Below, piece by piece: positions 1,726 through 12,610 of a DNA stretch of 12,610 bases. Each line of letters starts with the position of its first letter. Position 1 is the first letter of the stretch. The DNA comes from a virus. Its lineage: Duplodnaviria > Heunggongvirae > Uroviricota > Caudoviricetes. The notes under the pieces were generated by a model that worked only from the letters and a program-made list of their open reading frames with translations, was not told the DNA's origin and made no database searches. The DNA lies in IMG/VR virus record IMGVR_UViG_2630968712_000015; one strand, written 5' to 3'. The position numbers and the translations under genes are program-made.

Positions 1726-2229
1726 TTACTGATAGTGTTTTATGTTCAGATAATGCCCGATGACCTTGTCATGCAGCTCCACCGATTTTGAGAACGACAG
1801 TGACTTCCGTCCCAGCCTTGCCAGATGTTGTCTCAGATTCAGATTATGTCGCTCAATGCGCTGAGTGTAACGCTTGCTGATAACGTGCAGCTTTCCCTTC
1901 AGGCGTGATTCATACAGCGGCCAGCCATCCGTCATCCATACCACGACCTCAAAGGCCGACAGCAGGCTCAGAAGACGCTCCAGTGTGGCCAGAGTGCGTT
2001 CACCGAAGACGTGCGCCACAACCGTCCTCCGTATCCTGTCATACGCGTAAAACAGCCAGCGCTGACGTGATTTAGCACCGACGTAGCCCCACTGTTCGTC
2101 CATTTCAGCGCAGACAATCACATCACTGCCCGGTTGTATGCGCGAGGTTACCGACTGCGGCCTGAGTTTTTTAAGTGACGTAAAACCGTGTTGAGGCCAA
2201 CGCCCATAATGCGTGCACTGGCGCGACAT
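1726..2229 (-). CDS. insB: IS1 transposase InsB (expressed as an InsAB' fusion by -1 frameshift)
   Basis: 167-aa product ...[58 protein letters not shown]... matches IS1 InsB as recalled. Confidence 0.9.
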
Positions 2230-2423
2230 CCGACGCCATTCATGGCCATATCAATGATTTTCTGGTGCGTACCGGGCTGAGAGGCGGTGTAAGTGAACTG
2301 TAGTTGCCATGTTTTACGGCAATGAGAGCAGAGATAGCGCTGATGTCCGGCAGTGCTTTTGCCGTTACGCACCACGCCTTCAGTAGCGGAGCAGGAAGGA
2401 CATCTGATGGAAATGGAAGCCAC
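2148..2423 (-). CDS. insA: IS1 InsA (zinc-finger/HTH transposition inhibitor)
   Basis: 91-aa product [68 protein letters not shown]... is a near-identical IS1 InsA isoform. Confidence 0.9.
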
Positions 2424-2478
2424 GCAAGCACCTTAAAATCACCATCATACACTAAATCAGTAAGTTGGCAGCATTACC

Positions 2479-2487
2479 TGCTTGGGC
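2479..2487. repeat. IS1 target-site duplication, right copy (TGCTTGGGC)
   Basis: Exact 9-bp copy of 1702-1710, directly abutting the IS1 right terminal repeat. Confidence 0.9.
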
Positions 2488-3041
2488 TATGGCATGTTAA
2501 CGCCTCCTATATACTCGACATCGCAGGGCTTGATTCTATTGACACTCCCGCACGCATATTCAGCCCCGCACACAGAAAAAGAGAACTAGACGTAAGTGCG
2601 AATTATTATTTTTTTCTCGATTATACAAAACATGCCTTCCACGAAATATCCGTAGAGGATTTGTACATAACAAGGCCGTGGGTTGAATATATCGGCGAAT
2701 GCATGGACAAAAACCAGCCCATATACAGCCCCGAAACTCGCATAAACTTACAAGCTCTTTATGAGGATGTTAAAAACGTTGAGCACGGAAACAGAGAGCG
2801 CCACAGGCAAAAGCGCGAAATTTGCCTCTTGGCGTTGATTTATGTGAAGCGGCACTACCCAGAAGAGTGTAAAGGGAAGAACGGGAAGGAAACCAACGAA
2901 GCATGGGCGAACGCCACAATAAACCACTGGGCGCTTTTGGGGGGCGGCTATGATGAGCCATCCATAGATTACCTGAAGAAACTCATAGCCGACGCAGACA
3001 GAACACCGGAAGAACGCACCACGGCAGGGAAAAAAAGGTGA
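2488..3041 (+). pseudogene. 3' fragment of the IS1-interrupted gene; the reconstructed intact product is about 282 aa of unknown function
   Basis: Frame continuity with 1416..1710 after removing IS1 and one TSD copy. The upstream part of the six-frame ORF 2304..3041 is read-through across the IS1 end, not native coding sequence. Confidence 0.65.
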
Positions 3042-3069
3042 TAGTAAATTTTACTATCACGATAGTAAA
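3040..3069. promoter_or_regulatory. Operator-like site: three alternating 9-bp half-sites GATAGTAAA / TTTACTATC / GATAGTAAA, about 85 bp upstream of alpA
   Basis: Perfect 19-bp palindrome 3040-3058 (GATAGTAAA-T-TTTACTATC) followed by a third direct copy of GATAGTAAA at 3061-3069, in the intergenic region before the AlpA-like gene. Confidence 0.4.
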
Positions 3070-3153
3070 AAATACGATCATTCCTTTTTGAGCGTGCACG
3101 CCATTAAATCCCCGTAACGAAGCAACAACTATCGCTAAGAGGTTACGGGAATC

Positions 3154-3357
3154 ATGAACATCGACACTATCCCTACAAAAGGCTATATCAGACGCTTCCG
3201 CCTGGCTGAATTGCTGGGCGTTAGTGTATCCACCATCGACCGTAAAGTAAGAAACGGTTCACTACCACGTCCGGTAAAGCTGGGAGAAAAAATAACTGCG
3301 TTTGATGCGGTTGAGATTCACAACTGGCTGGCAGAACGCCGCGGGAAGGTGGCCTGA
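3154..3357 (+). CDS. alpA: AlpA/Vis-family small HTH transcriptional regulator (prophage excisionase-like)
   Basis: 67 aa; ...FRLAELLGVSVSTIDRKVRNGSLPRPVKLGEKITAFDAVEIHNWL... matches the AlpA-family signature; SD AAGAGG upstream of the ATG; sits beside the integrase as in P4-like elements. Confidence 0.85.
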   Translation: MNIDTIPTKGYIRRFRLAELLGVSVSTIDRKVRNGSLPRPVKLGEKITAFDAVEIHNWLAERRGKVA

Positions 3358-3801: not shown

Positions 3802-4419
3802 ATGACTATCGAAAAAAGCCGATTCAGTTCGGGGGCCGCCCCGCAACCCAACGTTAACACGGGAGTAATTAACGGCAACGACTTTGCCGCTATTGTTCCC
3901 GTTATTGCCGGACGCATTGGCGGGCGTGAAGCCAATATTGTGAGCGCTAAGGCGTTGCATAAAGCGCTGGGGGTGGGCCGCGACTTTACTAACTGGATTA
4001 AAGGCCGAATTGACCAGTACGGTTTTATTGCCGGAACCGATTTTATCCGTGTTGAAAATTTGAGCACGCCAAAACGGGCGAGCGCAAAAACTCGCCAGCA
4101 AATAGAGCATGATTACCTGCTATCGCTGGATATGGCTAAAGAAGTGGCAATGGTTGAACGCAACGAGCAGGGCCGCGCTATCCGCCGTTATTTCATCCAG
4201 TGCGAGGAAGAATTACAGCGTAGCGTGCCTGAAATCGCCGCCCGCTATCGTCGCCAGCTAAAAGCCCGTCTCAGTGCCGCAAACAACTTTAAGCCAATGT
4301 GCGATGCGCTGAATATGGCCCGTGCCGAGATGGGCAAAACGACGCAGCAGCGCCACTACAGCAACGAGAGCAACATGATCGCCCGTATCGTGCTGGGTGG
4401 CATGACGGCGAAGCAGTGA
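3802..4419 (+). CDS. AntA/AntB-like phage antirepressor domain protein (205 aa from ATG 3802; the six-frame ORF opens at 3742)
   Basis: Motif ...ALHKALGVGRDFTNWIKGRIDQYGFIAGTDF...DYLLSLDMAKEVAMVERNEQGRAIRRYFIQCEE... resembles the AntA antirepressor domain as recalled; GGAG SD 9 nt upstream of ATG 3802. Confidence 0.7.
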   Translation: MTIEKSRFSSGAAPQPNVNTGVINGNDFAAIVPVIAGRIGGREANIVSAKALHKALGVGRDFTNWIKGRIDQYGFIAGTDFIRVENLSTPKRASAKTRQQIEHDYLLSLDMAKEVAMVERNEQGRAIRRYFIQCEEELQRSVPEIAARYRRQLKARLSAANNFKPMCDALNMARAEMGKTTQQRHYSNESNMIARIVLGGMTAKQ

Positions 4420-4458
4420 GCGCAGGCAAATGGCATTACTGGCGAACCACGGGACAGC

Positions 4459-4611
4459 ATGAACGCAGCACAGCTTGAACACCTCGCCTATCTCGAAAGC
4501 ACCAATATCACGTTAATTGATATGGGCATGGAATATGAGCAGCGCAAAGGAGAACTCACCCGCCTGTCGCAACGCTGGCTCGCTAAACGTCTGGAGGTAA
4601 ACCATGCGTAA
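4459..4611 (+). CDS. Small ORF (50 aa), in frame with and directly downstream of the antA-like stop codon; either an independent small gene or the severed C-terminus of the antA-like gene
   Basis: ATG 4459 to TAA 4611; same frame as 3802..4419 with no stop between the TGA at 4417-4419 and this ORF; its 3' end overlaps the next gene in an ATGCGTAA junction. Confidence 0.3.
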   Translation: MNAAQLEHLAYLESTNITLIDMGMEYEQRKGELTRLSQRWLAKRLEVNHA

Positions 4612-4786
4612 CCACAATCCGATGCCGGGAAGCCGTTACAAGGATTCGCACGGGGCTGTAGTGACCGTTGAGCGCGTCGAGCATAACCGAGTGACCTTTT
4701 ACCGCGAGGGCTATCAGTCGCCATGTGTTCAGCCTTTGGAGAGATTCGTTAATGAGTTCGTGGAGGTGCGCCGTGATACTGAATGA
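4604..4786 (+). CDS. Hypothetical small protein (60 aa)
   Basis: ORF preceded by GGAGG SD (4593-4597); start embedded in the AACCATGCGTAA junction; protein-like composition. Confidence 0.45.
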   Translation: MRNHNPMPGSRYKDSHGAVVTVERVEHNRVTFYREGYQSPCVQPLERFVNEFVEVRRDTE

Positions 4787-5480
4787 ACCTGCCGCCCAGA
4801 AAGAAGCCTTTAATCTGGCTGGCCTGTTAACAAATGTTAACCCTTACAACCTTATAAAACCTGATATTGATACCGCAGCGCCCGGAGTTCCGTTACCAGT
4901 ACGCGAGGCGCTTACCCTCAACAAAAAGATGGTGAGCCGTGCACAGGAAAAACTCTTAAAGGGTTACGGTTTTATCTGGTATGACCACCTAGCAGAGAAA
5001 AGCTGTTATAGTTCAAGCGTTGCTGCAAAATCAGCAACCGGGCGTGGAAACCCGAACACACTCAGGGCGACACAGACGCCGAAAGCGTTTTTTTTTGTGT
5101 CCGATCACTACGCACATCAAATCAGCGGCCTAGTCCGTACTGTATCAATGGTGGCGTTAGTGGGGCTACGTTCGCGTAGGCCGGTTTCCTTTGTGTCCGG
5201 TATTTCCACCCCTGCTAACGTCACCGCCATTTCAGAGCGTGGAAACTCAGGCGGTGACTCCTTAAACACAAAGGAGGCTGCCGCTATGCTGGCTACTACC
5301 CCTACCCAAAAACCGCAATTTATCTGGATTATCGCCGCAGTTCGCCGCGATTGCCCGACAATTACCGCCAAAATTCATCATATTGCTGCCGAGTCTGAAC
5401 GCGATGCTCGCCGTTCTCTGGTGCGCGATCACGTCTGCTTTTTTGCTGGTCGTATCCGCATGGAGGTGGCACATGATTAA
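4773..5480 (+). CDS. Hypothetical ORF; coding status uncertain. Possible GTG start 4773 (ATG alternatives at 4752 or 4725); a strong internal SD+ATG at 5286 suggests the real gene may be only 5286..5480 (64 aa).
   Basis: GGAGGTG at 4762-4768 precedes GTG 4773; the first ~75 codons look protein-like, but 5018-5285 is hairpin-rich and uses rare codons (CTA, AGG). AAGGAGG at 5271-5277 sits 8 nt before in-frame ATG 5286. Confidence 0.35.
   Translation: MILNEPAAQKEAFNLAGLLTNVNPYNLIKPDIDTAAPGVPLPVREALTLNKKMVSRAQEKLLKGYGFIWYDHLAEKSCYSSSVAAKSATGRGNPNTLRATQTPKAFFFVSDHYAHQISGLVRTVSMVALVGLRSRRPVSFVSGISTPANVTAISERGNSGGDSLNTKEAAAMLATTPTQKPQFIWIIAAVRRDCPTITAKIHHIAAESERDARRSLVRDHVCFFAGRIRMEVAHD
5075..5096 (+). 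terminator. Possible intrinsic terminator or attenuator: short GC stem-loop followed by a run of nine T
   Basis: GACGC-CGAAA-GCGTT followed by T9 (5088-5096). The stem is only 4-5 bp, so this is weak. Confidence 0.25.
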
Positions 5481-5878: not shown

Positions 5879-6138
5879 ATATCAACTTAATTTATCGTCA
5901 TCCGTGTGAGCTGGAAATTGAATCATTGCTGGGGCGCGAAGAGCCATATCCAGACACATTCACTCCCGCAGATTGCGCGACTGAACGGCTTACCAGAGCG
6001 CGCACAGGTCTGGTTCATGTGATGAATGAGATTGTTCCCTCGGTGGGAGGGGAACAGGCGACAGTAATCAATAGCTGGCTACAAAAAGTTACCTCCCTGA
6101 TAGATATCAGTTTAATCGATGTGGAGAGTGCGAAATGA
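5875..6138 (+). CDS. Hypothetical small protein (87 aa)
   Basis: ATGA start/stop overlap with the upstream gene; GGGGGTGA SD. Confidence 0.5.
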   Translation: MNINLIYRHPCELEIESLLGREEPYPDTFTPADCATERLTRARTGLVHVMNEIVPSVGGEQATVINSWLQKVTSLIDISLIDVESAK

Positions 6139-6356
6139 CCAACATCCAGCTCATTGAAGCGCAATGTCGCATCGAACAGGTTCAGACTGTTTTAGGGTTC
6201 TGGCTTGAAGGGGCCAGCCCCAGCAACAGAGACAAGTTAATGATTGGCGCGGTTATGTCACTGCTCAATGGCGTACCAGAAGCTATTCAGGAAGCTGACG
6301 AATTGTTGGGCAAATATGAGTTACAGAATCATTCAGGCGAGGCGAAACATGAATAA
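6135..6356 (+). CDS. Hypothetical small protein (73 aa)
   Basis: ATGA start/stop overlap with the upstream gene; SD-like GGAGAG upstream. Confidence 0.5.
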   Translation: MTNIQLIEAQCRIEQVQTVLGFWLEGASPSNRDKLMIGAVMSLLNGVPEAIQEADELLGKYELQNHSGEAKHE

Positions 6357-6951
6357 TTTCTTAACGTTCCATGCAGAAGCAACGCCTGGCGGCGTAAACA
6401 TCATGTACCGCAGCAACGATGGCATGACAGAACGCGTTGAGACCGTCTCATATATTGATGCCGTAAATCGTCTGGATGCCGGGGATTATGACGATAAACC
6501 AGATGAAGGCATGTTTATACATCTCGCTATTGCCAGTGGCGGCAACCAGGGATATTTCGATTACACATCACAGCATCACGTGATTATGTGGCGCTGGCTG
6601 ATCGCAACAGTATTCATGCTGGAAATGAGAGAGGAAAACGGCACTGTCAGCATCATTGATGATACTGGCAATCCTTCCGAAGTGGCTGTTTATTCCAACG
6701 GCATCGTCGCCATGCCGCTGTATCCAGTAGCAGAGCGCCTCGCTATGGCAAACAACATTGAGGGCGCGATGATAGAACGTTTTGGCATCGAGTCTGGCAC
6801 AGAACGCGCCATCATTTTCTACAGAGCCATGATGGATGTGGAACAAGGAGCACTGACTCCATTTGGTCGTGAAACGCTTGCTGAACTTCACAACAGCTTT
6901 ATAGCTGAACTGAATGAAAACGGCTGGCCTGAAATGGCGCTGGCGCACTGA
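6349..6951 (+). CDS. Hypothetical protein (200 aa from ATG 6349; the six-frame ORF opens at 6244)
   Basis: ATG 6349 overlaps the stop of the preceding gene; GAGGCG SD-like sequence upstream; followed 9 nt later by the next gene. Confidence 0.55.
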   Translation: MNNFLTFHAEATPGGVNIMYRSNDGMTERVETVSYIDAVNRLDAGDYDDKPDEGMFIHLAIASGGNQGYFDYTSQHHVIMWRWLIATVFMLEMREENGTVSIIDDTGNPSEVAVYSNGIVAMPLYPVAERLAMANNIEGAMIERFGIESGTERAIIFYRAMMDVEQGALTPFGRETLAELHNSFIAELNENGWPEMALAH

Positions 6952-6959
6952 GGGGCGAC

Positions 6960-7301
6960 ATGATTACTAAAAATTTCCGACTGAATGCGCTGGCGAATAA
7001 GTATGCGGCAGCACTGTATAACCACATTACTTCCACCAGCGGCGGGGACTATTTCATGATTGATGCGGACGGCCTCGCCGTCCGTGTGGAAATCGTCAAT
7101 GGAGTAAAAGGCGTTCGCAGCCTGATTGATAGCTACGCACTGGCAGCCATGAAAGTGCGCTACCCGCAGTGGGAAATCGTGGGGATCGAGCTTCTTGATC
7201 GTTGCGTCACTAAGGACGGATTGACTGACATCGGGCGCGAGATATGGCAAAGCATGATTAATGATATGGGCGCGACCGTGGCAGGAGGCAACCATGCGTA
7301 A
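6960..7301 (+). CDS. Hypothetical protein (113 aa) immediately upstream of the primase, translationally coupled to it
   Basis: GAGGGG SD before ATG 6960; stop overlaps the primase start (ATGCGTAA). Confidence 0.55.
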   Translation: MITKNFRLNALANKYAAALYNHITSTSGGDYFMIDADGLAVRVEIVNGVKGVRSLIDSYALAAMKVRYPQWEIVGIELLDRCVTKDGLTDIGREIWQSMINDMGATVAGGNHA

Positions 7302-10053
7302 TATCGACCTTATCCGCGAAGTGACCAGCGCCGCAGCAGGGCGCTGGCCTTATGTGCTGGCTGAATTGTCTATCGACGTGCCTGATTCATCGCGCCGCCA
7401 TTCTCCATGCCCTGCATGTGGTGGAAAAGACCGTTTCAGATTCGACGACAACGGGCGCGGTAGCTTTATCTGCAACCAGTGTGGCGCTGGTGACGGGCTG
7501 GATTTAATCAAGCGGGTAAACAACTGCGACACCACGGAGGCGGCACAGCTTGCCGCTGACGTGCTGGGTATTGATTACCGGGCAGCGCAAACCGACCCGG
7601 CGGCAGCGAGCCATAGAAGAGAGCAACTGGAAGCTGACCGCCAGCAGCGTGAGCAGGAGCGCCAGAAACAGGCAGCAGAGGACGCAGAGCAGCGAAGGGC
7701 TACGTTTGCCCATCTGTATGCCGGAATGCGCCAGAGTGCCACACAGGGCGAATCTGATTACCTGCAATCAAAAGGGCTGACCGGGTTTAACTATCCGGTT
7801 ATGCCGGATGGTTCGTTATTGCTGGAGCTGGTGGACGAATCCGGCGCAGTGGCAGCAGCGCAAACCATTACACCGCAGGGAGAGAAGCGACTCCTGACAG
7901 GTTCAGCAAAGCGCGGGGCATATCACGCCGTAAACGCGCCAGAATCGCCGCAGAGCGTTTTAATTGCCGAGGGGCTGGCGACGGCCCTTTCAGTTCACCT
8001 GATGCGCCCGGACGCGCTGGCAGTGGCAGCAATTGACGCGGGCAACCTGCTACCCGTTGCCGAAGTGATGCGCCGGATATATCCCGCCACGCAGATTATC
8101 ATTGCCGCAGATAACGACCACCAGCAGGACGACCAGGCGAACACGGGCAAAGATGCCGCAGAGAAAGCCGCCTTATCCGTGGCTGGCTGGGTGGCGCTGC
8201 CGCCGACAGACTACAAAGCCGACTGGGACGACTACCGCCAGCAAAACGGGCTGGAAGTCGCTACGGCTGCGTTTAACGATTCGATGTACCAGATTCAAGG
8301 GGAAGCCGTGAAACCGCGATTGCAAGCCATTGAGGGCGGTAAAACTGACCATCCAGAGAAAGATCCACTAAAACCCCACATTGAGAGCCGCAAAGATAGC
8401 GTTTTCTGGGTAACGCCGAAGGTGGACAAGGAAAGCGGGGAGATCGTCAACGCTGAAAGCTGGTTATGTTCCCCGTTGGAGGTTATCGGCACGGGACGCG
8501 ACGACAAAGATCAGTATCTTATTATCTCATGGCTGGCATTCGGTGCAGGCATACCGACAACAGCGGCTATCCCGCTGGCTGATATTGGCGAGCGTGAAGG
8601 CTGGCGCACCCTGAAAGCTGGTGGGGTTAACGTCACGACCAAAAGCAGTTTACGGGCGATCCTTGCCGACTGGCTACAGCGGAGCGGCTCGCGTGAATTG
8701 TGGCGCGTTGCTCATGCTACAGGCTGGCAGTGCGGGGCATACATCATGCCGGACGGGGAAATCATCGGCACACCTGAGCGGCCTGTTTTGTTCAGCGGGC
8801 GCAGTTCAGCCGCTGCCGGGTATACCGTAGCAGGAACGCCGGAAAGCTGGCGCAACAGTGTCGCGCGGCTGGCATACGGCAACTACGCGATGATGACAGG
8901 CATTGCCGCAGCACTGGCAGCGCCATTAATCGGGGTGGCAGAGCGTGACGGATTCGGGATTCATTTTTATGAGCAATCGAGCGCCGGGAAAACAACCACG
9001 CAGAACGTGGCTAGCAGTCTATACGGGAACCCTGATGCCTTGCGCCTGACGTGGTACGGGACGGCGCTGGGGATGATAAACGAGGCCGCCGCCCACAATG
9101 ACGGACTGATGCCGCTGGATGAAGTCGGACAGGGCGCAGACCCGATAAGCGTTTCTCAGTCTGCCTATGCCCTGTTTAACGGCGTAGGGAAATTGCAGGG
9201 CGCGAAAGAAGGCGGAAATCGGGATCTAAAACGCTGGCGTACCGTGGCAATCAGCACCGGGGAAATGGATTTAGAAACGTTCATTGCCTCCGCAGGACGC
9301 AAGACAAAAGCGGGGCAACTGGTGCGCCTGCTGAATATCCCGTTAAGTAAGGCGGTGCGCTTTCATGAGCACCAGACAGGGAAAGACCATGCAGACGCAT
9401 TAAAATCCGCGTGGCAGAGCAATCACGGCGCTGCCGGGCGGGAGTGGATCAGATGGCTTGCAGGCCACCAGCAGCAGGCCATTGATACCGTTCGTGACTG
9501 TGAAGCCCGCTGGCGCAGTCTTATTCCTGCCGACTATGGGGAACAGGTTCACCGTGTAGGGGCAAGGTTCGCCATTCTGGAGGCTGCTTTACTGCTGGGT
9601 GGCGTGGTTACTGGCTGGGATGATCAAACGTGCCGTGATGCGATACAGCACAGCTACAATGCGTGGTTGCGTGAGTTCGGCACGGGGAACAAAGAGCACC
9701 AGCAGATTATTGAGCAGACGGAGGCGTTTTTGAATGCCTATGGGCTGAGTCGATTCGCGCCGCTGGGTTATGACCCGCGCGATTTACCCATCCGTGATTT
9801 AGCCGGGTACAGGAAGAAGGGGAACCACGACGGCGACCCGATAATTTTCTACACCTTCCCGGCAGCGTTTGAGCAGGAGATTGCAAAGGGCTTCAATACC
9901 AAACAGTTTGCCGAAGTTCTAAAGAATGCAGGAATGCTTACACCACCAACGAGCGGGCGAGGCTATCAGGGGCGAGTAAGGGAGGATGGGCGACAGATTC
10001 GCGTCTATGTACTCAATTTCATGGCAGAGGAAAGCAGCCAGCCAGAAGAATAA
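7294..10053 (+). CDS. Primase-helicase (P4 alpha-like replication protein): N-terminal primase zinc ribbon, Toprim domain, C-terminal P-loop NTPase/helicase domain
   Basis: Perfect AGGAGG SD before ATG 7294; CPACGGKDRFRFDDNGRGSFICNQCG zinc ribbon; Toprim-like AEGLATALS...IIIAADNDH; Walker A SSAGKTT and Walker B LMPLDEVG; 919 aa. Confidence 0.9.
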   Translation: MRNIDLIREVTSAAAGRWPYVLAELSIDVPDSSRRHSPCPACGGKDRFRFDDNGRGSFICNQCGAGDGLDLIKRVNNCDTTEAAQLAADVLGIDYRAAQTDPAAASHRREQLEADRQQREQERQKQAAEDAEQRRATFAHLYAGMRQSATQGESDYLQSKGLTGFNYPVMPDGSLLLELVDESGAVAAAQTITPQGEKRLLTGSAKRGAYHAVNAPESPQSVLIAEGLATALSVHLMRPDALAVAAIDAGNLLPVAEVMRRIYPATQIIIAADNDHQQDDQANTGKDAAEKAALSVAGWVALPPTDYKADWDDYRQQNGLEVATAAFNDSMYQIQGEAVKPRLQAIEGGKTDHPEKDPLKPHIESRKDSVFWVTPKVDKESGEIVNAESWLCSPLEVIGTGRDDKDQYLIISWLAFGAGIPTTAAIPLADIGEREGWRTLKAGGVNVTTKSSLRAILADWLQRSGSRELWRVAHATGWQCGAYIMPDGEIIGTPERPVLFSGRSSAAAGYTVAGTPESWRNSVARLAYGNYAMMTGIAAALAAPLIGVAERDGFGIHFYEQSSAGKTTTQNVASSLYGNPDALRLTWYGTALGMINEAAAHNDGLMPLDEVGQGADPISVSQSAYALFNGVGKLQGAKEGGNRDLKRWRTVAISTGEMDLETFIASAGRKTKAGQLVRLLNIPLSKAVRFHEHQTGKDHADALKSAWQSNHGAAGREWIRWLAGHQQQAIDTVRDCEARWRSLIPADYGEQVHRVGARFAILEAALLLGGVVTGWDDQTCRDAIQHSYNAWLREFGTGNKEHQQIIEQTEAFLNAYGLSRFAPLGYDPRDLPIRDLAGYRKKGNHDGDPIIFYTFPAAFEQEIAKGFNTKQFAEVLKNAGMLTPPTSGRGYQGRVREDGRQIRVYVLNFMAEESSQPEE

Positions 10054-10080
10054 TTATTTCTTCACATGCGTAGTTTTAGT

Positions 10081-10254
10081 GTTGTCTCGGTTGTCTTTGT
10101 TGTCTCAATTTGTAATTGAGATTGATTTATAAGGATTTTATTTTAATTTCTGAGACAACACCGAGACAACATTTAGCCATTTTGAGACAACAGGGCGAAA
10201 GTGTGTTTTTAGTCTGGCAGGCAGTGAGACAACATTTATGCCGGGTGAGACAAC
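10081..10254. repeat. Iteron array: three inverted GTTGTCTC/T copies at 9-bp spacing, an AT-rich spacer, then five direct TGAGACAACA copies phased at 11/21/42/21 bp; putative replication origin or cis replication region
   Basis: GTTGTCTC at 10081, GTTGTCTT at 10090, GTTGTCTC at 10099; AT-rich 10107-10150; GAGACAAC at 10152, 10163, 10184, 10226, 10247; located directly 3' of the primase-helicase gene. Confidence 0.6.
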
Positions 10255-10343
10255 ACTATTTTTGCTTACTATGAAAAAAAATCGGCAGGTGTCCCACATT
10301 AAGAAATCGTCATTAGCAAAACTAATAATCCAGTGAGGGGAAA

Positions 10344-10778
10344 ATGACAGCACAAATTTCAGCATACGGGCGGCTGGTGGCAGATCCCCAGACCCGCACC
10401 ACAACGAACGGTAACAACATGGCTATGGCGCGGCTGGCGGTGTCTCTCCCCTGTAATGCGGCAGAGGCGGGAGAGTCAACCTTCTGGCTGGGCGTTATTG
10501 CTTTTGGGAAGCAGGCCGATGCGCTGGCAAAGCACCAGAAAGGCGACCTTGTGAGCGTGGCAGGCAATATGCAACTCAACCAGTGGACAGGGCAGGACGG
10601 CGGTACACAGCAGGGGTATCAGGTAGTAGCCGACAGTGTGATCAGCGCCAGAACGGTACGCCCCGGCGGGAAGGCAGGACAGCGGGGACAGGCAACGGAC
10701 GCGCTGAGACGTGCGCAGCAGCCATCCCGTGATGAATACGACCAAAGCCCACCATTCGACGATGAAACGCCATTCTGA
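10344..10778 (+). CDS. ssb: Single-stranded DNA-binding protein (SSB-like, 144 aa) with acidic C-terminal tail
   Basis: GAGGGG SD before the ATG; OB-fold-like pattern (GRLVADPQ...NG...A.ARLAV...FW..VIAFGKQA...KGD.V.V.G.....W); C-terminal ...PPFDDETPF resembles the SSB acidic tip (DDDIPF in E. coli SSB). Confidence 0.7.
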   Translation: MTAQISAYGRLVADPQTRTTTNGNNMAMARLAVSLPCNAAEAGESTFWLGVIAFGKQADALAKHQKGDLVSVAGNMQLNQWTGQDGGTQQGYQVVADSVISARTVRPGGKAGQRGQATDALRRAQQPSRDEYDQSPPFDDETPF

Positions 10779-10788
10779 GAGGGAAGAT

Positions 10789-11340
10789 ATGAGTACGCAA
10801 CCCATCATTATTGAGTTCGGCAGCTATCGCTGGCCCAGACATCTTGCAATACATGAAGCAGGTCATGCGATAGCCGCATGGTTTTTCGGCATACAGGAGG
10901 TAGAAATTGCGTTATCGGGTAATAACCGAGTGGCAAAAACCTACCTTAGCGGCGATGTTGATGAATGTGGAGCTGTCGCGGTATGGCACGCCAACTATCC
11001 ACGGAATGTGGCTGAGGTTAAGTCTTACACCCTCTCGAATGATGACACCAGGTTACGTCTGATAGACCAGGTATGCCGGGCTATGGTTATCTCTCTGGCT
11101 GGTATCGTCGCGCAATCACGCTATACGGGGGATGATATTAACGCACTGATGGAAACGTCCGGGAAAGCAGACATGAAAAATGTTCGTGATTTATCAGAGG
11201 TATACCGGGTGGCTGGTGGGGAGGATGCTGATATACAGAGAATATCCCTTTCCCGTGCTGAGGCGCTGATTGCCCTGAAATGGTGGGATGTAGACTGGCC
11301 CCCTGAATCTCCAGACAACCAGTATCACTTAAATAAGTGA
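10789..11340 (+). CDS. Stand-alone FtsH-like (peptidase M41-type) zinc metalloprotease-domain protein; the native 3' end is replaced by IS2 from nt 11291 (last 16 codons and the stop are IS2-encoded)
   Basis: True start ATG 10789 after the ssb stop (the six-frame ORF start at 10711 lies inside ssb). [13 protein letters not shown] matches the FtsH HEAGH zinc-binding motif, with downstream regions paralleling the FtsH protease domain; no AAA+ domain upstream. Confidence 0.55.
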
Positions 11341-11381
11341 TAGTCTTAATACTAGTTTTTAGACTAGTCATTGGAGTACAG

Positions 11382-11747
11382 ATGATTGATGTCTTAGGGC
11401 CGGAGAAACGCAGACGGCGTACCACACAGGAAAAGATCGCAATTGTTCAGCAGAGCTTTGAACCGGGGATGACGGTCTCCCTCGTTGCCCGGCAACATGG
11501 TGTAGCAGCCAGCCAGTTATTTCTCTGGCGTAAGCAATACCAGGAAGGAAGTCTTACTGCTGTGGCCGCCGGAGAACAGGTTGTTCCTGCCTCTGAACTT
11601 GCTGCCGCCATGAAGCAGATTAAAGAACTCCAGCGCCTGCTCGGCAAGAAAACGATGGAAAATGAACTCCTCAAAGAAGCCGTTGAATATGGACGGGCAA
11701 AAAAGTGGATAGCGCACGCGCCCTTATTGCCCGGGGATGGGGAGTAA
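11382..11747 (+). CDS. insC: IS2 InsC (OrfA, HTH transposase component), 121 aa from ATG 11382
   Basis: [56 protein letters not shown]... matches IS2 OrfA; GGAG SD upstream. The six-frame track start at 11337 is a GTG inside the IS2 terminal repeat. Confidence 0.9.
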
Positions 11748-12610
11748 GCTTAGTCAGCCGTTGTCTCCGGGTGTCGCGTGCGCAGTTGCACGTCATTCTC
11801 AGACGAACCGATGACTGGATGGATGGCCGCCGCAGTCGTCACACTGATGATACGGATGTGCTTCTCCGTATACACCATGTTATCGGAGAGCTGCCCACGT
11901 ATGGTTATCGTCGGGTATGGGCGCTGCTTCGCAGACAGGCAGAACTTGATGGTATGCCTGCGATCAATGCCAAACGTGTTTACCGGATCATGCGCCAGAA
12001 TGCCCTGTTGCTTGAGCGAAAACCTGCTGTACCACCATCGAAACGGGCACATACAGGCAGAGTGGCCGTGAAAGAAAGCAATCAGCGATGATGCTCTGAC
12101 GGGTTCGAGTTCTGCTGTGATAACGGAGAGAGACTGCGTGTCACGTTCGCGCTGGACTGCTGTGATCGTGAGGCACTGCACTGGGCGGTGACTACCGGCG
12201 GCTTCAACAGTGAAACAGTACAGGACGTCATGCTGGGAGCGGTGGAACGCCGCTTCGGCAACGATCTTCCGTCGTCTCCAGTGGAGTGGCTGACGGATAA
12301 TGGTTCATGCTACCGGGCTAATGAAACACGCCAGTTCGCCCGGATGTTGGGACTTGAACCGAAGAACACGGCGGTGCGGAGTCCGGAGAGTAACGGAATA
12401 GCAGAGAGCTTCGTGAAAACGATAAAGCGTGACTACATCAGTATCATGCCCAAACCAGACGGGTTAACGGCAGCAAAGAACCTTGCAGAGGCGTTCGAGC
12501 ATTATAACGAATGGCATCCGCATAGTGCGCTGGGTTATCGCTCGCCACGGGAATATCTGCGGCAGCGGGCTTGTAATGGGTTAAGTGATAACAGATGTCT
12601 GGAAATATAG
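11705..12610 (+). pseudogene. insD: IS2 InsD (OrfB, DDE transposase catalytic domain) interrupted by an in-frame TGA at 12089-12091 where a Trp codon is expected
   Basis: The two six-frame ORFs 11705..12091 and 12188..12610 are in the same frame with no other stop between them; [25 protein letters not shown] versus ESNQRWCSDGFEF in IS2 InsD as recalled. Confidence 0.75.

Follow-up and report, generated by a model that had tools for sequence, protein, structure and literature searches.

The 12,610-nt stretch of DNA analysed here (the window), a Caudoviricetes sequence held as IMG/VR record IMGVR_UViG_2630968712_000015, is a satellite-type island that carries, behind its ssb gene, the first part of a gene for a stand-alone zinc peptidase of the FtsH (M41) type. 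This part lies at 10789-11290 on the plus strand and comprises codons 1-167 of 213 (plus 1-2 nt), after which the gene is interrupted by the insertion sequence (IS) IS2; the protein is identical to the intact allele WP_095784789. That the protein is an M41-like domain is near certain: the fold and the active site are M41-like, and the full-length FtsH architecture, with its membrane anchor and AAA+ module, is absent. The role of the protein is much less firmly supported. Taken as a whole, the reading favoured here is on balance moderately probable: judging from sequence comparison, the gene would encode an ATP-independent endopeptidase of the satellite, produced along with the replication genes and directed at a protein of the helper phage or the host. 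M41 proteases are the classical case of enzymes that need a fused AAA+ unfoldase for proteolysis. The existence of a conserved form reduced to the protease domain raises the questions of whether the fold can work alone and on which substrate.

The M41-like fold and its zinc site

The open reading frame (ORF) is opened by an ATG at 10789, 10 nt past ssb and directly behind a Shine-Dalgarno-like purine-rich stretch, AGAGGGAAG (10778-10786, plus strand), that was read from the sequence and overlaps the ssb stop codon (10776-10778). The start methionine (MSTQ) is common to 18 out of 18 close homologues. The HEAGH motif (H22 E23 A24 G25 H26; codons at 10852-10866, plus strand), which aligns with H414-E415-x-x-H418 of FtsH, begins 21 residues (63 nt) past this ATG, at residue 22. 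A sequence-only reading of the same DNA had given the ORF, motif and IS2 junction coordinates correctly, as seen from the translation of 10789-11340 and from the match to the intact allele, which ends at 11291. It had also placed the gene start about 70 residues upstream of the motif, which is too far: even the longest possible ORF, from a GTG at 10711 inside ssb, places the motif 47 residues downstream. This GTG was rejected as a start because it overlaps ssb and because every homologue begins at the MSTQ methionine.

No AAA+ module was found upstream of the motif, where the ssb gene, ending at 10778, lies instead, and no AAA family appeared in Pfam scans of the query or its relatives; in this respect the sequence-only reading was correct. 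Nor was an N-terminal transmembrane anchor observed, as the N-terminus runs straight into the HEAGH helix and the structural model contains no hydrophobic helix before residue 17.

In single-sequence searches with the query, nothing significant was obtained in Pfam, PHROGs, NCBIfam, PADLOC or the PDB (phmmer). The close relatives fall into 23 clusters, nearly all from Enterobacterales, with 62-98% identity. A profile of 18 of them was without success against the PDB and, by hhalign, against FtsH. When searched against 1.84 billion representatives, this profile recovered 60 clusters (50% identity level) at E<=1e-3, whose proteins have 180-230 residues in most cases, and 49 of these relatives, 17-46% identical to the query, made up the wider alignment that was needed. 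The resulting profile found FtsH chains of the PDB with E=2e-11, the match covering positions 10-197. In the same way, hhalign placed residues 17-203 on residues 408-605 of E. coli FtsH with a probability of 94.9% and E=4.8e-8. Finally, the Pfam M41 model (PF01434) was matched by 20 of the 49 relatives at E<=0.01, the best value being 1e-13. The FtsH M41-type domain proposed around HEAGH from the sequence alone is thereby borne out, and the two things on which that proposal had been staked, a profile hit to M41 or another HExxH fold and conservation of HEAGH in uninterrupted homologues, were both found.

In the hhalign alignment, HEAGH falls on the HEAGH of FtsH, SLAGIVAQ on YGGRLAEE and D128 (in TSGKADM; codon at 11170-11172, plus strand) on D492 (in TGASNDI). 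FtsH D492, numbered on the 644-aa protein, is D495 of the literature numbering, the third zinc ligand in FtsH structures, located in the helix that follows the AG..AE helix. A third ligand near ETSGKADMK had been suggested from the sequence, and D128 is indeed invariant there. In all 49 relatives H22, E23, H26, G105, A108, D128 and A172 are unchanged, and it is this conservation, as read from the aligned sequences, that gives the motif its real support. By comparison, HExxH occurs twice in the six frames of the window against 0.8 expected, so chance is not excluded by HExxH alone, while HEAGH occurs once against 0.01 expected, which is beyond chance. Pairwise dN/dS (the ratio of nonsynonymous to synonymous substitution rates) among alleles of E. 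coli, other enterobacterial genera, Dickeya, Pectobacterium and one metagenomic relative was 0.09-0.34, which points to purifying selection. Together with the invariance of the zinc and catalytic residues, this speaks for a functional enzyme where the gene is intact.

An AlphaFold model computed from the 49-sequence alignment (confidence scores: pLDDT 93.6, pTM 0.91) has the M41 fold. The FtsHi and Ycf2 subunits are among its top structural matches, all others being at 6.9 or below, and a Foldseek search with an earlier, weaker model agreed with the M41 result. Another zinc-protease family, Peptidase_M50B-like (PF13398), was also matched by the query at 16 bits (E=0.01, cut-off 26). This identity was rejected because the match lies below threshold and covers residues 20-45, that is the HExxH helix only, and because transmembrane segments are absent.

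Several known proteins can be compared with the candidate. The FtsH protease domain (M41; residues 408-605 in E. coli; PDB 2di4, 2ce7, 4eiw and 7tdo) is part of a membrane-anchored ATPase, whereas the 213-residue candidate has neither transmembrane segments nor an AAA+ ATPase, starts its motif at residue 22 and is 17-20% identical to FtsH. The FtsHi, Ycf2 and FtsH12 subunits of the chloroplast import motor (PDB 8xkv, 8xqw and 8xks) keep their AAA+ module, while the candidate lacks it and keeps the catalytic residues. FtsHi1, 2, 4 and 5 have lost HExxH (PMC9020784). The closest likeness in architecture is A0A6J5RJ76, a 214-aa "Peptidase M41 domain-containing" protein of an uncultured Caudovirales, which is likewise domain-only and was the top match in BFVD (E=6e-4, template modelling score 0.56, 12% identity). 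A Dickeya UniRef entry (P0013), 69% identical to the query, also bears the automatic name Peptidase M41 domain-containing protein. The Vibrio cholerae protein 5iqj_A has 131 residues, far fewer than the candidate, and was not matched by the sequence profile at E<=1. Stand-alone M41-like proteins are thus rare, yet already present in databases under automatic names, and the family is small, with about 60 clusters in the representatives searched.

Intact alleles and the IS2 truncation

The combination of ssb and M41-like gene was found without IS2 in 26 complete E. coli genomes, the best at 99.8% DNA identity. The islands of NZ_CP047010 and NZ_CP026399 occupy ~12.5 kb between yicC and dinD, and their gene of 642 nt (4419988-4420629 in NZ_CP047010) codes for 213 residues and is annotated as hypothetical. 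Window residues 1-167 are identical to the 213-aa allele of NZ_CP047010. The retrieval of IS2-free homologous islands, which had been proposed from the sequence, therefore gave both the full-length gene and its neighbours.

In the window, the match to the intact allele stops at 11291, and 11291-12610 (plus strand), up to the window end, holds the first 1320 bp of IS2, with its terminal repeat at the junction and 99.8% identity to annotated copies of the IS3-like element IS2 family transposase; the truncation read from the sequence is thus confirmed. According to translation and comparison with the intact allele, the 46 C-terminal residues (168-213) are replaced by a read-through tail of 16 IS2-derived codons (11291-11340, plus strand) that ends in a stop at 11340, LKWWDV being the last native residues ahead of the tail. 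The same junction was absent from all 5,426 complete genomes checked.

The lost part aligns with FtsH 570-605 and comprises most of helix 165-178, with the invariant A172, helix 183-193 and the acidic C-terminal helix 203-212. Judging from the missing domain-core helices, it is very improbable that the truncated product folds. Because three domain-core helices and the conserved acidic C-terminal helix are lost, the window copy is almost certainly inactive, an IS2-disrupted pseudogene.

In the intact protein, residues 199-213 form a flexible linker followed by a conserved amphipathic acidic helix, LTLAELDELVGEE, whose L-x-x-L-D core recurs family-wide and, by its sequence, may serve in docking.

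A complete IS1 (768 bp, reverse orientation, 1711-2478) was also observed in the window, where it splits a gene downstream of the integrase that is intact at 4305-5186 in locus L001 as a 293-aa hypothetical protein. As the island was hit by IS1 in addition to IS2, it is decaying, and the window copy itself adds little to the understanding of the family, being a disrupted pseudogene in an island that also holds IS1.

Proposed role and competing explanations

According to the reading favoured here, the intact protein would be a soluble 213-residue zinc endopeptidase consisting of the FtsH-type protease domain alone, in which H22, H26 and D128 would coordinate zinc, E23 would act as general base and substrate binding would fall to the beta-strands that follow the HEAGH helix. 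Peptide bonds of a specific target would be cleaved without ATP at an exposed or unstructured segment, as the lack of an unfoldase would make an exposed or disordered site in that target necessary. The target would be a helper-phage or host protein, for example one that acts in regulation or defence, or one that belongs to a competitor. The protease would be made on island induction or replication, after helper infection or induction. Expression together with island replication is suggested by the 10-nt packing behind ssb, by scans for promoters and terminators around the gene, the ssb-gene gap included, in which nothing rose above shuffle expectation, and by adjacency to primase or ssb in divergent satellites.

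This adjacency was observed in Dickeya, in Pectobacterium and in three contigs from metagenomes or draft genomes, the proteins of which share 21-31% identity with the query. The islands concerned have an integrase, AlpA, an AntA/Bro/pRha-type gene and a primase of either the DUF927 or the D5_N/Pox_D5 type. The gene order is primase, ssb (in all but locus L017), sometimes a ProQ or PerC gene, and then the M41-like gene. In a probable Pseudomonas chromosome (L023), a relative at 6001-6642 overlaps a Toprim primase gene at its start, in an element that also codes for integrase, DUF3631, Phage_capsid and HK97-gp10-like genes and that, by this gene content, looks like a capsid-forming satellite. 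The position beside the primase is thus kept across unrelated satellite types. Such a recurrence beside primase or ssb in several kinds of satellite points to a role in the conflict between satellite, helper and host, a conflict in which proteases are, to our knowledge, barely documented so far. A tblastn search for the enterobacterial family in 50,697 phage records and 72,556 plasmids was negative. Profile searches for related loci returned 2 loci with the close alignment, and with the wide alignment FtsH-like HEAGH stretches only, none of which was confirmed.

Tentatively, and with clearly less confidence than is placed in an ATP-independent satellite endopeptidase, stand-alone M41-like peptidases might represent a new class of satellite effectors, produced along with the primase and ssb of the satellite. 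They would either cleave one specific protein of the helper phage or of a host defence, or insert into an AAA+ ring of the host and redirect its proteolysis. If true, the M41 lineage would gain its first soluble member that fulfils a biological role independently of ATP, and satellites would have a novel means of manipulating helper or host.

Nevertheless, several observations weigh against the idea of an ATP-independent endopeptidase made with the replication genes. We know of no case in which cleavage of folded proteins by an M41 domain without an unfoldase has been established. The query by itself reaches 12.3 bits on PF01434 (E=0.15, cut-off 29.9), over residues 17-33 only; as relatives match this model while the query falls below its cut-off, the link of the query to Pfam M41 is transitive. 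In addition, the enterobacterial subfamily has Gln109 at the position of FtsH E476, which is E479 of the literature numbering, a residue important for activity; this position is E, Q or N in the wider family. The ssb and M41-like genes probably form one transcription unit, as judged by their spacing alone. Moreover, in the sister islands L019 and L020 at yicC-dinD (6447-6728 in both), a PerC-family regulator lies directly after ssb and the M41-like cassette is absent. The presence of PerC at the same site indicates that the M41-like gene is dispensable cargo and not a core replication function, and the gene is indeed cargo, placed where the replication module gives way to the variable island end. 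Finally, a literature search brought up no study of stand-alone M41 proteins and none of a protease in such islands.

The cargo slot, with PerC there in the sister islands, also speaks for another explanation, namely an anti-phage defence effector. This protein would be silent or inactive in the lysogen, triggered by an infecting phage, and would cleave an essential host or phage protein in an abortive infection, perhaps together with the exported protein encoded downstream. A precedent is Lit of the e14 element, an HExxH protease that cleaves EF-Tu. In keeping with this, a ShosTA defence pair (12258-13867; PADLOC: ShosA 2e-100, ShosT 4e-49) was found in locus L008 downstream of the M41-like, 116-aa and Zn-ribbon genes; islands of this family thus have a hotspot of defence cargo at their distal end. 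The gene is also tightly coupled to its downstream neighbour. In E. coli, L008 and L011 this neighbour is a protein of 112-116 residues with a signal peptide and two conserved cysteines (L001 13084-13434; L011 915-1253; L008 10639-10989), the start of which overlaps the protease stop by 4 nt in E. coli and L008 (116 aa) and by 10 nt in L011, whose homologue is 34% identical to that of E. coli. However, the partner varies. In Dickeya, Pectobacterium, L010 and L017 it is an unrelated conserved lipoprotein of 356-374 residues (L003 10718-11788; L006 10727-11797; L017 8746-9870; L010 1968-2726) with a lipobox, an invariant YAAYHEYG and a C-terminal ILFSHWAGMARVY. Neither neighbour gave a Pfam, PDB or PADLOC match, and a domain shared by the two was ruled out (hhalign probability 0.4%). 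Furthermore, neither the query nor any of the 49 relatives was hit by a PADLOC-DB v2 model, the gene follows ssb closely and has no promoter signal of its own, and its place beside the primase holds across unrelated satellite types. Altogether, defence appears a rather unlikely function, if one worth weighing.

Modulation of a host AAA+ machine is less plausible still. Here the domain would dock onto or into the ring of FtsH or of another unfoldase, either adding a protease chamber or poisoning FtsH, and the stability of FtsH substrates, for example helper-phage regulators of lysis and lysogeny, would be altered. Such docking would fit with an alignment that spans the whole FtsH protease domain, C-terminal helices included, with structural matches to FtsHi and Ycf2, which are subunits of mixed rings, and with the conserved L-x-x-L-D helix past its flexible linker. 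On the other hand, the identity to FtsH is low, and the invariance of all four catalytic and zinc residues favours a catalysis of its own over a decoy, so that this mode of action is judged improbable.

An anti-repressor protease comparable to ImmA/IrrE (Peptidase_M78), cleaving a repressor of the island or of a helper prophage and triggering induction, has only a slight probability. Both would be small soluble HExxH zinc proteases on mobile elements, the latter on integrative and conjugative elements and prophages, so that a functional analogy is possible, and the AntA-type antirepressor genes of the island make derepression part of its biology. Nevertheless, the fold is M41 and not M78, none of the 49 relatives matches the M78/ImmA model (PF06114), their Pfam hits being limited to M41 and M50B-like, and the neighbours are ssb, ProQ or PerC, and exported proteins, with no adjacent gene for an Xre-type repressor; the ImmA/IrrE-type family named as an option in the sequence-only reading is therefore not retained. 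Least probable of all, and very unlikely, is a catalytically dead structural protein that would only bind partners: FtsHi and Ycf2 do reuse the fold without catalysis, the glutamine at the FtsH E476/E479 position is compatible with it, and a QEAGH in one Pectobacterium cluster calls for caution on catalysis, but H22, E23, H26 and D128 are invariant across relatives as distant as 17-46% identity, and the known pseudoproteases of this fold lack HExxH (PMC9020784).

Other features of the island

The remaining genes of the window agree with a satellite of the phage-inducible chromosomal island (PICI)/P4 type, with an integrase gene (1-1320), AlpA (3154-3357), a Zn-ribbon/Toprim/DUF927 primase, a size of ~12 kb and a fixed attachment site. 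The primase-helicase has 930 residues (7261-10053, plus strand; domains from Pfam). Between its stop and ssb (10344-10778, plus strand; PF00436, 5.6e-17) lies a cluster of at least 8 copies of the iteron GAGACAACA, in both orientations (10077-10258), which is likely the replication origin of the island. The free-standing protease gene therefore does sit beside ssb and an iteron origin on a satellite-type island, as had been read from the sequence. The window also codes for an AntA-type protein, a DUF4222 protein and an Ash/Icd-like protein, and no capsid or packaging genes were seen in it.

In parallel, window 8343-10344, which covers the C-terminal half of the primase and the iterons, gave no megablast match to loci L001 and L002, whose ssb and M41-like genes are 98.6-99.8% identical to those of the window. 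The start of ssb is a mosaic boundary, and ssb and the protease gene thus move as a cassette.

Finally, M41-like domains were also observed in larger proteins. In P0065, P0066 and P0071 (400-480 residues), the domain is fused to an N-terminal region that matches the PHROG families tail assembly protein and central tail fibre J. The gene for P0065 lies at 1878-3314 of locus L016, and the gene that precedes it resembles, by the look of its sequence alone, a ClpP-like protease/capsid-type gene.
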